From NCBI GenBank assembly GCA_020619395.1, contig GCA_020619395.1_4860.1: 64,000 nt of DNA; one strand, written 5' to 3'. A model generated the notes under the pieces. That model was not told where the DNA came from. It worked only from the letters and a program-made list of their open reading frames with translations, and did not search any database. This DNA is from a phage. Both the position numbers and the translations under genes were made by a program. Below are positions 23,300 through 51,602 of the stretch, piece by piece (the stretch's first letter is position 1; the number at the start of each line of letters is the position of its first letter).

Positions 23300-24298
23300 T
23301 TACTCCACTAACTCGATAACGAATGCGTACAAACCGACCTTCTCAGCACTGTCAATTAACGTAACTTGGGAGAGGTTACGTTTCGACGTATTGGTTATGC
23401 TTGAATCGATAGGCGCAGACCCGCGAACCAGAACTAATCCCGATTCAGGATCACGTTCTTGGCACAAGAAACCTTTGCCTTGGTAAGCGCTACCGCTCCC
23501 ATAAATGGACGCTGGACTAATATTAGTCCAGTTAGGGAGCATTTGTTTGTTAGGGATACAATCTCCGAACGGATAAACAAAATCGTTATATTCGCAGCGA
23601 CCATATTCCAAGTCATCATGGTCTGCGTTTCGCAACGATTCATCCAATGTCATTACTGTCGGTTCGTCCCCGTCGGTTAAACCGCGCAGCAATCGCATCC
23701 GATAGGTGTCGCCTTGCCATTCAAACAACCCACTCTGGTCAACACCTGCCAAATCCCCACGTCCGTTATCAGGACCAAATCCATCAACACCGTACACAAG
23801 CCCCGCGTTATAAATGTCATTCCACGAGTAAAGTGTAGAGTTAAATCGTCCGCCGCTGTTCATCATGTAGTAAACTTTACCATGTCGATAAAACTTGTTC
23901 ATGATTAGCGTGCCCGTGCCCGATATCCCTGTTAATGCACGAAAGCCTGCAGGCAACGCGTCATAGGTCATCTGTTCTTCGAACGGCAACTGCCCCAGAA
24001 ACGCCAAGTCGTCAGTATCGGAATAGTTAATCTGGTCGACGCCACCCACACCACGACGGTTTTTAATGACAATGGATTTTTGTGGACTACCTACGGTACG
24101 GCCGTTAACAGTTACTGTTAAAAGATACCAGTAACGGGTGTTAAGAATAACGGTTTCGTCCGTCCATTCCGTTTCGCCATTACTTAAAGTTGCAATAGGG
24201 GCTGGTAATGCGGCTGTATTTATTTTAGCCGTGCCCCGATAAATGTTAACAATTGAACCTGCCGGATTTTCATTTTTCCAGCGTAGTGTGAATGCCAT
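23300..24298 (-). CDS. Fibre-module paralog type B, triad 3 (332 aa)
   Basis: MAFTLRWKNENPAGSIVNIYRG.. N-terminus; AAGGAG RBS; 3-nt gap to A gene. Confidence 0.7.
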   Translation of the reverse strand: MAFTLRWKNENPAGSIVNIYRGTAKINTAALPAPIATLSNGETEWTDETVILNTRYWYLLTVTVNGRTVGSPQKSIVIKNRRGVGGVDQINYSDTDDLAFLGQLPFEEQMTYDALPAGFRALTGISGTGTLIMNKFYRHGKVYYMMNSGGRFNSTLYSWNDIYNAGLVYGVDGFGPDNGRGDLAGVDQSGLFEWQGDTYRMRLLRGLTDGDEPTVMTLDESLRNADHDDLEYGRCEYNDFVYPFGDCIPNKQMLPNWTNISPASIYGSGSAYQGKGFLCQERDPESGLVLVRGSAPIDSSITNTSKRNLSQVTLIDSAEKVGLYAFVIELVE

Positions 24299-24308
24299 CT
24301 GTTACTCC

Positions 24309-25751
24309 TTAGAAGCCGTTCAACTCACCGTTCGCGGTTGCTAAATCTGTTTTAAGTGGAGGTTCTGCCTGAGTAGGCGGTAGTGGACGCGGTGCGTCGA
24401 CGTGTGGTTCAAGTACAACCATCGGCCTAACTGTACCTACGCTGTTCGACACTGTCGATAACGGCAGCGCAGTATCGACGTTTGGTTCACCCACCACAAT
24501 CGGGCTGATAGGTTCTTCCACCTGTTCCGCAGTTGTTGCTAGAGGTCTCGGCGCATCTGTTGTCGCAACCTCGACTGCAAGAGGGCGAATGCTATCAGGT
24601 TGTGGTGATGGTACATTAGGAATAACCCTAACGCGCCACACAACATCCCCTTCCACATCAGCTAAAGATAAGACGATGTCGTCCTTATTGATTTCCTCTA
24701 AAACAGGCCACCAGTAAGTGGTATCTGTAAGGGTTACCCATTCAACTGAGCCACCGCGCATATTGCAACGTTGTACTTTAACAGGGTTACCCCCGGTTAA
24801 CAGTTGTTGCGTGAAGAAGACGGTGGTTCTGGTTAACGTGGTGTCATTTGCCCAGTCGCCGCCCGTAGAACCGTCACCGAGTTGTGAAATAAGCCACAAC
24901 GGTGTGGCCTTTGATAAATCAGGGCTAACCGGAACGGAGACGCGGTAATAATGCGTCTTGTTATTCTCAGTTTTCGTGACAATCAAAGCCTGGTCAACAG
25001 GTTCGATACCGTCTGGATACGGACCAGTGTCACCTGTACCGAAAATGGCACCCGCTTGATAAAGGGCCGTCCAGGTTGCTGTTAACGTTCCGGTAGTCGG
25101 TAGATAAACAATCTTACCATCCTTGAAAAATTTCAACCATTCGAAAGTCATTTTCGTTGGGGCAACATCAGGACGAATTAGGTTGTTTAGTTCAGCAAAG
25201 GTAAATAACTCTTGCTGAGAAACGTGGCCGAAGTATCCGTTTGTGCTGTCCCCTGCCAACAAATATTTATTGCCTGGCCCAGAATCTGGATAGTAGCCCA
25301 CGGCTTCATTCAAATAATCGACCGGGATATAGCCGCGATAGCATACGCTATTATACGCGGTTAAATTAATACGTGTTGGCGTTGCCAGCGATTTGATAGG
25401 CGCGTCTACCGACTGTACACTGCTATCAGATAACCAAACACCGTATAAATCGCGTAGAGCTGGGAGAAGATCCCGCACGGTCTTGGCCGTTTGTGGTACG
25501 TAGACGCGCGGAGCTATTTTAAATAGATCTGATAATGTTAAACGGTCGTAATAAACCGTGCACTCCCCAGAGAAACCTTTACCGGGTTTACCTACCAACG
25601 TAATTACCGTGTTACGACCATTCTTAGTGGTCTCGGCAGGAATACCCCTCACCCCAATCGAATCAGCGCTGATTCTTCCTGCGAGTTCAGGGTTATCCCT
25701 TACGACTTGTTGGCAGAGCAATTCCAGTTCGGGTGCGCTATACAATCCCAT
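24309..25751 (-). CDS. Fibre-module paralog type C, triad 3 (480 aa)
   Basis: N-terminal family module (VRDNPELAG..GRNTVITLVGKPGKGF..VYYDRLTLSDLF), central GPG..GYFG..ELF domain, DAPRPL repeats, C-terminal TANGELNGF. Confidence 0.7.
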   Translation of the reverse strand: MGLYSAPELELLCQQVVRDNPELAGRISADSIGVRGIPAETTKNGRNTVITLVGKPGKGFSGECTVYYDRLTLSDLFKIAPRVYVPQTAKTVRDLLPALRDLYGVWLSDSSVQSVDAPIKSLATPTRINLTAYNSVCYRGYIPVDYLNEAVGYYPDSGPGNKYLLAGDSTNGYFGHVSQQELFTFAELNNLIRPDVAPTKMTFEWLKFFKDGKIVYLPTTGTLTATWTALYQAGAIFGTGDTGPYPDGIEPVDQALIVTKTENNKTHYYRVSVPVSPDLSKATPLWLISQLGDGSTGGDWANDTTLTRTTVFFTQQLLTGGNPVKVQRCNMRGGSVEWVTLTDTTYWWPVLEEINKDDIVLSLADVEGDVVWRVRVIPNVPSPQPDSIRPLAVEVATTDAPRPLATTAEQVEEPISPIVVGEPNVDTALPLSTVSNSVGTVRPMVVLEPHVDAPRPLPPTQAEPPLKTDLATANGELNGF

Positions 25752-37850: not shown

Positions 37851-37860
37851 CTATACCCTC

Positions 37861-38658
37861 CTAGTTGTTAAAGTGTAGGTTGAGGCTGCCCTGGAAGTTC
37901 GTACATTTATCGGTCAGTTGCACTGACACGACTTTCGCGAACGCCGTATTTGCTCCCGGCAAGTCTGCAGGTACGCCGTCGAATACGACAGTGGCACCAC
38001 GCAGGTTATACGGGGATGGGGTATCTTCAGCTACCCAAATCTCAGGAACACATTTGTTGAGTTCGATTGCCAACGCCGTGTCATCTACCTCGATACCGAC
38101 CGCTAAGAGGCTCAGGAAACGAGAGATGTGGCTACAATCGATGTCACGCGAATAGATATACGCCTGACCCAACTGGATGTCCTGGTGATCCGGGTACAGA
38201 AGACCGCTCAACTCTGTATTGGTTACTACTTCTGCCAGAGGTGTAGCAGGTTTCAGCTCGATGACCGCTTGACTTCGCCACTCGTGGGAAGTTTCAACAG
38301 CAACGACTGTGTGCGTCTGTCCATCAATGGGGTTATCTTCGATATCCTCAGGTAAGATAGACAGATTAAAACGCTCGTTAATCGCCGCGAGTAAGTCGTG
38401 CGTGGTTTGCACGTCCTCGTCTCCAAAGGCAACATCGCCTTTAAGGTAGTCCTCTAATGGACGACGATGGTAGTCCACAATCACTTGCGTACCTTCATCA
38501 CCGCGCATCTTCGAGGTAAGGACTACCTCCGAATCACGACCGTCTACTGACACAACCTCCGGCAGTCCGATATCAACATCGTCAAAGGTAAGCGGTGGGC
38601 TTATCTTATTCTCTTCGTTGATGAGTTTTAGCAGATTCTGTTTTGAAGTAAAAGACAT
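37861..38658 (-). CDS. Fibre-module family short paralog, first gene of array (265 aa)
   Basis: ATG 38658 preceded by palindrome TTAACTCGAGTTAA and no clear SD; C-terminal LNLHFNN. Confidence 0.6.
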   Translation of the reverse strand: MSFTSKQNLLKLINEENKISPPLTFDDVDIGLPEVVSVDGRDSEVVLTSKMRGDEGTQVIVDYHRRPLEDYLKGDVAFGDEDVQTTHDLLAAINERFNLSILPEDIEDNPIDGQTHTVVAVETSHEWRSQAVIELKPATPLAEVVTNTELSGLLYPDHQDIQLGQAYIYSRDIDCSHISRFLSLLAVGIEVDDTALAIELNKCVPEIWVAEDTPSPYNLRGATVVFDGVPADLPGANTAFAKVVSVQLTDKCTNFQGSLNLHFNN

Positions 38659-38760
38659 CGCGTTAACTCGAGTTAAGGGATTATTGAGGTCGTAAGATTT
38701 TTAGACCCCCTGCCAGCATATTAAAAGCGTAGTGCGTACCAGAATCTGAACAAGAGCAAA

Positions 38761-38810
38761 CAAAAAAAAAGAAAAGGAAACAAAAAAAGAAGGGGAGCCG
38801 AAGCTCCCTT
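38761..38810 (-). terminator. Strong rho-independent terminator upstream of the paralog array
   Basis: Minus-strand GGGAGC-TTCG-GCTCCC hairpin followed by a long T-rich run (CTTCTTTTTTTGTTTCCTTTTCTTTTTTTTT). Confidence 0.7.
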
Positions 38811-38814
38811 TTCT

Positions 38815-39246
38815 TCACGACTTCGACTGCTCCCATTCAGGATAGACGAAGTTTCCATTGTGTTCTTTGTAGTGTTTGTAGAGTTCCTGGACAAGATCAG
38901 AAATCTTATCCCCGCAATCATGAAACCAACTATCCCAGCAAAAGTGCGGGAAGTCGTTCCACGAATAAGATACCTTGTCATTGAAAGCTTCCCAACTGAC
39001 ATACCACCAATAGCCCTTCTGCAGTTCATAGGCATCCCAGAACTTATACCCACTAGACGTTTCGTATACCACGATAATCCATTTGACATCGTTCGTCCCT
39101 TCGTCGCAGATACCGAATGCGTGGTCGGTGGTGTCGAACGTGTAGTCCGTCTTATAGGGTTTGTTTTTGTTGTTTATCCGAATACGTGCACCCTTCGGCA
39201 TCAGAGCATGGAAAGTATCGCCGTTCAGCTTTTTGATTACGTTCAC
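38815..39246 (-). CDS. Hypothetical protein (143 aa), Trp/Tyr-rich
   Basis: GTG start with GAGGA 9 nt upstream; no recognisable domain. Confidence 0.5.
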   Translation of the reverse strand: MNVIKKLNGDTFHALMPKGARIRINNKNKPYKTDYTFDTTDHAFGICDEGTNDVKWIIVVYETSSGYKFWDAYELQKGYWWYVSWEAFNDKVSYSWNDFPHFCWDSWFHDCGDKISDLVQELYKHYKEHNGNFVYPEWEQSKS

Positions 39247-39267
39247 GACTTTATCCTCAATCGTCGA

Positions 39268-39486
39268 TTAACAGACCCACACAAGGCCGTTATTCTTTGG
39301 GCGGTCTTTAACACCGTAGGTTACTTCAACATTGTCAATCATTTTATCGCCGTCTTTCATTGTTTTCATGAAAGCTTTGGCTTCTGCTGCAGACATTTTC
39401 AGCAGCAGGTCAATCATGTCAGGCTTACGTTTGGCGGTGGTTTCAACAACAGGTTTGATTTCAGATTTGGAGAAGAGGTTGCGCAT
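39268..39486 (-). CDS. Hypothetical small protein (72 aa)
   Basis: ATG with AAGGA 9 nt upstream. Confidence 0.45.
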   Translation of the reverse strand: MRNLFSKSEIKPVVETTAKRKPDMIDLLLKMSAAEAKAFMKTMKDGDKMIDNVEVTYGVKDRPKNNGLVWVC

Positions 39487-39547
39487 GGGATATTCCTTTT
39501 TTGTAGATTGCAGGTTGATTGGCGGGACTTTGCCCGCCGAGTTATTA

Positions 39548-39994
39548 TTAGTGTACTTCTTTTTCTAAACGCAGGCGATGTGTTGCTAAGGCAACCGCGC
39601 GGTTTTCGAATTCAAGACTGAATGGGCTGATTTGTGCCATGTATTTCTTTACGATGTCGTCAGAGACAACTTGACGACGATAATCACGAATCATTTCAGC
39701 AAAGCTGCTAGTAGGAAGTTCATCGTATTCGATTTCCATACCACGTCTATTGATGTAGTACGAAGCAACCATGTCGTTAAACATTACATCGCCGGCTTCA
39801 CCTAGGGGGAACTCGTCGCGGGTAGGTTCTGTGGTCTGGAACGTGGCTTCTTTGGCGTTAGCGATAATCTCTTCGAAGACCTCAGTAGTGAATTCGCTAG
39901 GGTCTTGTTTGTTGGCCGCCATCACGATTAGGAAAGAAATCATAATCGGGTTTTTGCTAGCGTACTTAGTAAGTTCGTTATTCAGAATGTACAT
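39548..39994 (-). CDS. Hypothetical protein (148 aa)
   Basis: AAGGAG 8 nt before ATG; preceded by the conserved leader cassette. Confidence 0.6.
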   Translation of the reverse strand: MYILNNELTKYASKNPIMISFLIVMAANKQDPSEFTTEVFEEIIANAKEATFQTTEPTRDEFPLGEAGDVMFNDMVASYYINRRGMEIEYDELPTSSFAEMIRDYRRQVVSDDIVKKYMAQISPFSLEFENRAVALATHRLRLEKEVH

Positions 39995-40025
39995 GTTAAA
40001 ACTCCTTAAGATAATGGTCGAGTAA

Positions 40026-40072
40026 GAGAGTTAATGGTTAACTCTCACCTAAGTAATATATATCTGAAAATT
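40026..40072 (-). promoter_or_regulatory. Conserved upstream motif plus leader hairpin (copy 1 of duplicated leader cassette)
   Basis: Plus-strand AACTCTCACCTAAGTAATATATATCTGAAAA and hairpin GAGAGTTAA-TGG-TTAACTCTC; about 75 nt near-identical to 58103-58180. Confidence 0.45.
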
Positions 40073-40087
40073 ATTGTAATCGGACTA

Positions 40088-40127
40088 GACAAAAAAAGAA
40101 GAAACCCTACTCCCGAAGGAGTAGGGT
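40088..40127 (-). terminator. Rho-independent terminator
   Basis: Minus-strand CCCTACTCC-TTCG-GGAGTAGGG followed by TTTCTTCTTTTTTTG. Confidence 0.7.
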
Positions 40128-40167
40128 GCTGCTTTATTGACCGCTTTTGGGATAAGTGCCTCTCAAG

Positions 40168-40608
40168 TCAATCGGCCACGTAATCACGTAAGAGTTTCCG
40201 GGCTGCTACTGTAGCAGAAACTTGCTCTTTATTAGCGTTAATGCCGATACCATTAAAACGTTTTAGTTTGTCTAAGAAAACGCTAATGTTTTCTTTCGGC
40301 ATAGGGCGTGGGAACTTACGCAGAAAATAAAGTTGTTCGCGGCCAGGCACCCAACTGAGTACCCAGCACGCTTTCAGTGTACGGAAGATATCACGGTAGG
40401 GTTTCTTCTCTTGAAAGAAGTCCCCTTTTAACTGACAACGGTCTTCAACCATTGCCTGGAGTTGAGTGGCTACGTTGGCCATTGCCGGCCAGGTGATAAG
40501 ACGACTACGGTGTTTACCCACGTAGAGACGTCCACCTGTAATACGACGAGACTGTGGATGTACTATTTTGACAAACTGTAATCTTTTCTGTTTGCGTGGC
40601 TTTAACAT
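40168..40608 (-). CDS. Hypothetical basic protein (146 aa)
   Basis: AAGGAG 8 nt before ATG; Lys/Arg-rich; no confident domain. Confidence 0.55.
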   Translation of the reverse strand: MLKPRKQKRLQFVKIVHPQSRRITGGRLYVGKHRSRLITWPAMANVATQLQAMVEDRCQLKGDFFQEKKPYRDIFRTLKACWVLSWVPGREQLYFLRKFPRPMPKENISVFLDKLKRFNGIGINANKEQVSATVAARKLLRDYVAD

Positions 40609-44140: not shown

Positions 44141-44162
44141 CTGAGATAACATCTATCTGAAA
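44141..44162 (-). promoter_or_regulatory. Conserved upstream motif (GAGATAACATCTATCTGAAA class)
   Basis: Plus-strand CTGAGATAACATCTATCTGAAA 60-80 nt upstream of the ATG at 44080; same core at 51581, 59856, 40040, 58148. Confidence 0.4.
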
Positions 44163-51580: not shown

Positions 51581-51602
51581 TAAAATAACATCTATCTGAA
51601 AA
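51581..51602 (-). promoter_or_regulatory. Conserved upstream motif
   Basis: Plus-strand TAAAATAACATCTATCTGAAAA about 35-55 nt upstream of the ATG at 51548. Confidence 0.4.

Follow-up and report, generated by a model that had tools for sequence, protein, structure and literature searches.

A conserved candidate late-gene leader at a palindromic site upstream of the first family B head-protein gene of an SPN3US-like jumbo phage

Comparison of orthologous loci suggests that the functional unit in front of gp138, the first gene of a head-protein paralog array in an SPN3US-like jumbo phage, is a conserved cis-acting late-gene leader composed of a TATG-type promoter, a 5′ hairpin and a start region with a weak Shine-Dalgarno (SD) sequence, an interpretation to which we give an even chance. 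The perfect 14-bp palindrome that had drawn attention to the site is read here as an incidental, lineage-specific coincidence. The cassette lying under it is real and conserved, of a known general kind, and apparently undescribed.

The paralog array and its palindrome

The window (the whole 64,000-nucleotide stretch that was analysed) comes from an SPN3US-like jumbo phage and around the palindrome locus is 98-99% identical to phages of the genus Seoulvirus, phiKZ-related jumbo phages, namely Salmonella phage SPN3US and close relatives of it. All genes around the locus lie on the minus strand (Table 1). The first paralog, annotated in RefSeq as "virion structural protein" (ACQ60_gp128), is the SPN3US gene that Thomas et al. 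number gp138, and it does head a paralog array, as the first-pass annotation had it: paralogs downstream of gp138 were detectable by BLASTP, and gp138 and neighbouring genes match PHROG 1037. The description of these genes as fibre paralogs was wrong, since they form paralog family B of SPN3US (gp138-154), whose members are head proteins present in tailless particles and not fibres (PMC5694885; PMC5105663). The gp138 protein (29.2 kDa) is found in the head with an SC/M of 1.20, compared with 1.24 and 1.31 for gp139 and gp140, respectively, and 9.39 for gp141 (PMC5694885 Supplementary Table 1).

Table 1. Coordinates in the window of the features at the gp138 locus
Feature	Position	Strand	Basis or remark
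Intrinsic terminator of the upstream operon, GGGAGCTTCGGCTCCC plus T-run	38783..38808	(-)	Terminator scan and sequence
Late-promoter-like block, TTTAATATG	38717..38725	(-)	Putative transcription start at G 38717
Invariant 5′ end of the putative leader, GCTGGCAG	38710..38717	(-)	Alignment; unique in the SPN3US genome
Hairpin P1	38686..38709	(-)	SD-like G-run pairs with CCUC/CCUU; interior variable
A/U-rich variable linker with conserved CC	38670..38685	(-)	Alignments; holds left palindrome arm, 38670-38676
14-bp perfect palindrome, TTAACTCGAGTTAA	38663-38676	(.)	Chance frequency; not conserved; RNA fold -0.9 kcal/mol
Translation-initiation block, -11 to +42, GAGTTAACGCG ATG TCT ... CTG CTA AAA CTC ATC AAC	38617..38669	(-)	Alignment
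Candidate hairpin P2, -11 to +36	38623..38669	(-)	Encloses GAG and AUG; predicted
First paralog CDS (gp138)	37861..38658	(-)	265 aa, ATG 38658-38656; virion head protein
AGGAGGG SD of the second paralog (GTG 37850)	37856..37862	(-)	Overlaps stop codon of the first gene

The sequence confirmed the palindrome TTAACTCGAGTTAA directly upstream of ATG 38658, from which a 4-nt CGCG spacer separates it. It is present as a single copy in the window and likewise in the 240-kb SPN3US genome. Perfect palindromes of at least 14 bp are not enriched in the window (5 versus 4.27 ± 1.98 expected from Markov shuffles), and the half-site GAGTTAA was found 12 times against 8.65 ± 2.57 expected. Folded as RNA, the palindrome reaches the tabulated energy with z = -0.07 relative to shuffled sequence. 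Two longer perfect palindromes were observed inside genes of the paralog array, one of 20 bp (CTGGACTAATATTAGTCCAG, window 23512-23531) and one of 16 bp (GAATCAGCGCTGATTC, window 25660-25675); the 20-bp palindrome is expected about 0.06 times per window by chance, far less often than one of 14 bp.

Orthologous loci were collected from GenBank phages and from IMG/VR and JGI metagenomes, giving 14-19 distinct leader sequences in five genus-level clades (Seoulvirus, Erskinevirus, Machinavirus, Wellingtonvirus and an uncultured clade of ~225 kb), with Derbicusvirus (CR5, Phobos and EarlPhillipIV) as the outgroup. Protein-guided scans of IMG/VR and the JGI metagenomes returned the same clades only and no further leader variants. 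The full palindrome is confined to the closest relatives of SPN3US and is absent from the other orthologous loci. Its left arm, TTAACTC, is replaced by TTACAAC (the version of phage SPAsTU), TTTAAAC, AATAACC, CTTAACC or TTATTGT, being changed in four of the five clades and, within Seoulvirus, in SPAsTU and SNUABM_29, while the right arm is invariant. The left arms of the orthologs are not complementary to the right arm, so that the pairing is not kept. Divergence of the left arm in other clades beside a constant right arm argues that the palindrome is a by-product in a single lineage. As RNA, the left arm (UUAACU) resembles the epsilon enhancer of T7, a likeness that we set aside since the arm is not conserved.

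These data leave little room for the two roles first proposed for the palindrome itself. A perfect 14-bp dyad in a regulatory region would suit an operator bound by a dimeric DNA-binding regulator of the operon, and a gene for an HTH protein is present elsewhere in the window, but the dyad occurs at chance frequency and in a single genomic copy, is lost in all orthologs beyond the near-identical SPN3US group, and lies 41-54 nt downstream of the putative transcription start at 38717 (about 45 bp), so that it would probably not overlap the promoter; we regard such an operator as highly improbable. The probability that the palindrome folds as an RNA hairpin masking the ribosome-binding region seems to us close to negligible: UUAAC and GUUAA can form five base pairs, which do appear in the MFE fold of the full leader, but this fold is no better than that of shuffled sequence, the left arm is not conserved and the pairing shows no covariation.

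The half-sites had also been linked to leader hairpins elsewhere in the window. The hairpins at 40046-40026 (-9.6 kcal/mol, z about -3.5) and 58154-58134 (-8.8 kcal/mol, z about -3.9) indeed contain AACTC and GAGTT in their arms; the sharing of GAGTT/AACTC is nonetheless best read as coincidence, with the arm order reversed in the palindrome and no loop between its arms. Both hairpins are preceded by an exact CAGATATATATTAC motif, which is similar to the early promoters described for these phages, an AT-rich type used by the virion polymerase (PMC7598289). The early cassettes they belong to (window 40066-40000 and 58174-58110, both (-); six more in SPN3US, at L063, L064, L065 and L066) run in the order CAGATATATATTAC, YTAGGTGAG, a hairpin with a covarying stem, a TAATCGACYATTA box and a strong SD. 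Among the approximately eight early cassettes of SPN3US the stems differ and covary (GAGATGAG/CTCATCT, GAGATT/AATCTT, GATAGA/TCTATC, GAGAGTT/AACTCTC and GAGCGTTA/TAACGCT), and the stem sequence is therefore no shared recognition element. We see a likeness between these repeated cassettes and the promoter-early stem-loops of T4-type phages. A second exact 14-mer related to the early motif, CAGATAGATGTTAT, was found in intergenic positions at 44146-44159 (-) and 51585-51598 (-), with 0 copies expected; no GAGAGTT-type hairpin follows either copy, and the motif may represent a variant, perhaps middle, promoter class.

A late-promoter-like block followed by a 5′ hairpin

Similarity between genera begins abruptly at YTTTAWTATGCTGGC (window 38725-38712; YTTTAWTATG in the alignment), just past the terminator of the upstream operon. 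This phiKZ-type TATG block, TTTAWTATGCTGGC, is conserved across the five clades, equivalent terminators precede it in the orthologs, and the distance from terminator to conserved block ranges from a few to some tens of nucleotides. The TATG itself (38720-38717) is invariant in all orthologs and is found at the equivalent place in Derbicusvirus too. In phiKZ, (-3)TATG(+1) is the consensus of the late promoters of the non-virion RNA polymerase (nvRNAP) (PMC7598289, PMC7618050), and all four bases are required (PMC7598289). SPN3US has polymerase subunits that correspond to those of phiKZ, with split beta/beta′ (PMC7598289), and its annotation contains several "RNA polymerase beta subunit" genes, consistent with encoded multisubunit RNA polymerases. 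A sigma-70 promoter scan detected none on the coding strand at the locus. A literature search found no transcript mapping for SPN3US-like phages, and we infer transcription to start at the G of 38717, which corresponds to about 115334 in SPN3US.

TATG alone is a frequent sequence; the version flanked by TTTAW and CTGGC is unique to this locus in the genome, and inspection by eye of 25 upstream regions yielded no genome-wide late-promoter consensus around TATG. Neither the block at the leader 5′ end nor the one around the start codon has another copy in the window or in the assembled SPN3US genome. When IMG/VR was scanned with the 15-mer of the leader 5′ end, the 29 extra matches were all unrelated coding DNA, and an Rfam 15 scan of 38400-40300 gave no match at the gathering score, only sub-threshold chance matches.

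The invariant 5′ end of the putative transcript, in which one clade carries an A to T change at +7, leads into hairpin P1. The G-run of P1 reads GGGGGU in the window and GGAGGG or GAGGGA in other clades, and the P1 positions can pair in 93.8% of alignment cells compared with 39-74% in slid controls; the covariation score was reached by only 1 of 500 shuffles. The interiors of P1 are unrelated between clades, yet every ortholog folds (-4.8 to -16.6 kcal/mol). P1 is thus a conserved 5′ leader hairpin whose base pairing is kept through sequence change.

Two further arrangements of the leader were considered and rejected. A split SD bridged by the hairpin fails on geometry, the G-run being the 5′ arm of P1 itself and the AUG lying 27 nt past P1. 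A long-range pairing of UGGCAGG at the 5′ end with UCUGCUA of codons 8-10, seen in the single-sequence MFE fold, is broken in the uncultured L016 clade by changes on both sides.

The ATG contained in TATG was likewise dismissed as the start of a uORF or of an N-terminal extension: across phages it falls in frames 0, 1 and 2 relative to the gene, and reading from it meets stops after 5-12 codons in several clades. Three deposited genes, phiEaH2 gp059 (L004 1509), pEa_SNUABM_29_00011 (L002 1598) and pEa_SNUABM_10_00153 (L012 1423), have annotated starts at this ATG or further upstream. Since the frame of TATG is not conserved, the N-extended annotations in phiEaH2, pEa_SNUABM_29 and pEa_SNUABM_10 are probably wrong, and the comparison argues for the downstream ATG as the true start of all three.

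Several observations were made around other TATG sequences and around this one. Directly upstream of the block (window 38726 on) lies a hot-spot for cargo genes, evident from loci L004, L005, L007 and L011 versus L002, L003 and L013, where several Erwinia phages carry an EPS depolymerase gene and Seoulvirus has small hypothetical ORFs. In Derbicusvirus (L034, L033 and L035, ~1390-1500) the leader is of unrelated sequence and has TATG followed at ~+9 by the hairpin GAGUUA-CUUUU-UAACUU; reuse of a GAGTTA/TAACT-type arm in this CR5-type leader, at the focal locus and in some early cassettes may be coincidence. In SPN3US, stable hairpins follow two other TATG sites upstream of late genes: ACCAGGTCTTAAACCTGGT follows the one at 69770 (L064 ~24871), ahead of the major capsid gene, and a hairpin based on GAGG...CCTC follows the one in the leader (L066 ~22840) of the prohead protease gene at 220808. 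A 5′ hairpin may be a general beginning of late transcripts in SPN3US.

An invariant start region with almost no SD

The best anti-SD duplex of gp138 has an energy of -2.5 kcal/mol, among the 5 weakest of the 55 annotated genes of the region (median -6.1). No canonical SD, taken as at least 4 nt of anti-SD complementarity located 5-13 nt upstream, was found at this start. The initial statement that gp138 lacks an SD was thus nearly right, save that a GAG remains at -11 to -9 (38669-38667). An exceptionally open start region was rejected as a feature of the gene, as its accessibility is average (opening energy 7.1 versus a median of 7.5 kcal/mol, rank 25/55). The virion level of gp138, similar to that of gp139 and gp140 with their strong SDs, indicates that this SD-poor start works.

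The remaining genes of the array all carry an SD of the GGAG/AGGA/GAGG type, that of the second gene (AGGAGGG) overlapping the first stop codon. With an SD of its own on every downstream gene, translational control of the whole operon from the palindrome site, as initially suggested, is unlikely, and whole-operon control would instead be placed at the promoter. The RefSeq start of the second paralog, SPN3US gp127 (L001 21879), has no SD (-0.7 kcal/mol); GTG 37850, 10 nt past the stop of the first gene and equipped with the AGGAGGG SD, gives a 280-aa product, as annotated in other phages.

Around the gp138 ATG, a block from -11 to +42 (GAGTTAACGCGATGTCT...CTCATCAAC) is invariant except for 8 positions among 19 distinct sequences, in clades whose proteins are only 44-60% identical, and of the palindrome only the right arm falls within it. 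The uncultured L016 clade, at 44% protein identity, retains the block exactly. Protein-guided retrieval, independent of the motif, found GAGTTAACGCGATGTC in 14 of 17 IMG/VR orthologs, the missing three being Derbicusvirus contigs. Synonymous codon identity amounts to 0.90 in codons 1-15 versus 0.47 in the rest of the gene, and the block ends sharply at +42, with variation back at codon 15. In the Derbicusvirus phages CR5, Phobos and EarlPhillipIV (43% protein identity), the block is absent and an AAGG SD is found instead. The block is thus kept where the SD is missing, and an AAGG SD is present where the block is missing.

One explanation of such conservation would need no function in expression: the block could be a recombination anchor at a mosaic junction, where exchange of upstream cargo homogenises the leader and the 5′ coding sequence. 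The genes upstream of TATG do vary between phages (EPS depolymerase or small hypothetical), and synonymous identity falls with distance from the junction (0.90, 0.82, 0.59 and 0.51), but the P1 interior and the linker, both highly diverged, lie between invariant blocks and would have been homogenised with them in exchanged tracts, and the conserved block stops sharply at +42. We therefore consider this explanation improbable. Another possibility is that the invariant sequence upstream of ATG is itself the promoter and the mRNA leaderless or nearly so, which would explain the missing SD. In late promoters of the phiKZ type the start site falls within the motif, whose last bases are ATG (PMC7598289), and the invariant ...CGCGATG, which has no SD, likewise ends in ATG. 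The sequence here is GATG and not TATG, however, of which phiKZ requires all four bases (PMC7598289), the start codon would be lost if transcription began at the G, and the upstream TATG block and covarying P1 would be left unexplained. These objections make a leaderless mRNA very unlikely.

The RNA-structure idea of the first-pass annotation survives in altered form. The palindrome hairpin itself finds no support, but a strongly conserved RNA-level element does span -11 to +42. The right arm is part of it, and a weak hairpin predicted there, P2, encloses the AUG. P2 would pair GAGUU (-11 to -7, right arm) with AACUC (+32 to +36), and GCGAU/UCU with AGA/AUC.GC. It is the MFE fold in 14 of 14 orthologs (-5.1 to -7.1 kcal/mol) and the RNAalifold consensus. 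Relative to a structure drawn from the window sequence alone, variable positions are concentrated at unpaired sites (6/15 unpaired versus 2/32 paired, Fisher p = 0.009), and the same holds for third codon positions (3/3 unpaired versus 1/8 paired, p = 0.024). The P2 stem shows no compensatory changes, all pairs being invariant except one that is broken in the L016 clade, and the energy of P2 is no better than that of shuffles (z = -0.23). Unpaired positions, as well as +37 to +42 outside P2, are equally invariant; structure is therefore insufficient to account for the block, which is likely recognised by something in a sequence-specific manner.

The block with P2 could be a translational operator for a phage RNA-binding protein, possibly gp138, or for another trans-acting factor, whose binding would time or limit synthesis of the first paralog. 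Its paired and unpaired nucleotides are both invariant across clades with 44-60% protein identity, it is longer than a 30S footprint, its weak hairpin encloses the AUG as in known phage translational operators, and with average accessibility and energy structure alone explains little. On the other side, the motif is unique in the genome so that any factor would have a single target, and gp138 is about as abundant in virions as its neighbours. We judge this operator unlikely, though with an appreciable chance. A bolder and rather doubtful extension takes -11 to +42 as an element that nucleus-forming SPN3US-like jumbo phages dedicate to translational control or to recruiting ribosomes independently of an SD, recognised sequence-specifically by a phage factor or by the ribosome. 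P1 would then sequester a decoy SD, and all this together with the TTTAWTATGCTGGC block would constitute the first bioinformatically definable late promoter-leader cassette of the group.

Proposed mechanism and comparison with known systems

According to the late-gene leader interpretation that we favour, the non-virion RNA polymerase would start at the G of TTTAATATG (38717), directly past the upstream terminator. The resulting 59-nt leader would begin with the invariant GCUGGCA, followed by P1, which, as supported by covariation, locks the SD-like G-run against CCUY. P1 most likely serves as a 5′ stabiliser and keeps ribosomes off the decoy SD. Translation of gp138 would then proceed from the almost SD-free region, which has only the GAG at -11 to -9 and an A/U-rich stretch upstream and whose conservation is observed here. 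With the AUG held in the weak P2 (GAGUU × AACUC), translation of gp138 alone would be modest, while the downstream paralogs would start from their own SDs and the operon would be controlled at the promoter.

Little defines the late promoters of phiKZ-like jumbo phages beyond a consensus of four bases, and according to reviews bioinformatics fails to predict them. At the present locus, promoter, leader and start are packed into one cassette that is conserved in five genus-level clades and offers a clean substrate for start mapping and in vitro work with nvRNAP. It also shows, in gp138, how a virion gene can naturally be translated with no usable SD, in a phage for which a physical separation of transcription from translation is assumed. 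The view of the palindrome as regulatory is corrected by the analysis, which also flags probably wrong N-terminal extensions in several deposited annotations. We consider the cassette of moderate interest for the field of jumbo-phage gene expression.

Among known systems, the operators of lambda or P22 share with the locus a perfect 14-bp dyad near a gene start; here the dyad is not conserved, the site is not repeated and would probably not lie over the promoter, and the frequency is that of chance. T4 genes 25 and 38 have split or bridged SD sites, and like them the gp138 leader has an SD-like purine run far upstream of the AUG with a hairpin between; in this case, however, the G-run is paired inside the hairpin and the AUG, 27 nt beyond, is not brought together with it.

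In T7 late leaders and in ompA, 5′-proximal stem-loops stabilise the mRNAs. P1 is similar in being conserved, covarying and placed at about +8 of the putative transcript, and a TATG-plus-hairpin arrangement also stands upstream of the SPN3US capsid and protease genes. It differs in the 7-8 unpaired nucleotides preceding it, which in E. coli mRNA decay exceed what classical 5′ stabilisers tolerate, and in its base, where an SD-like G-run is in every case paired with an anti-SD-like CCUY, a feature unneeded in simple stabilisers. The MS2 coat/replicase, T4 gp43 and RegA systems use translational operators that enclose the start codon, and the -11 to +42 block resembles these in its weak hairpin with the AUG and in loops and stems that are invariant into the coding region; it differs in being a candidate element, predicted from sequence, with one site per genome.

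The late promoters of the phiKZ nvRNAP differ from the putative gp138 promoter in that the start is deduced here and that the conserved flanks, TTTAW upstream and CTGGC downstream, have no described phiKZ counterpart. The two agree in the conserved TATG that opens the block, in its position, with a terminator just before it and late virion genes downstream, in the homologous split beta/beta′ subunits that are encoded, and in the lack of a sigma-70-like promoter at this locus.
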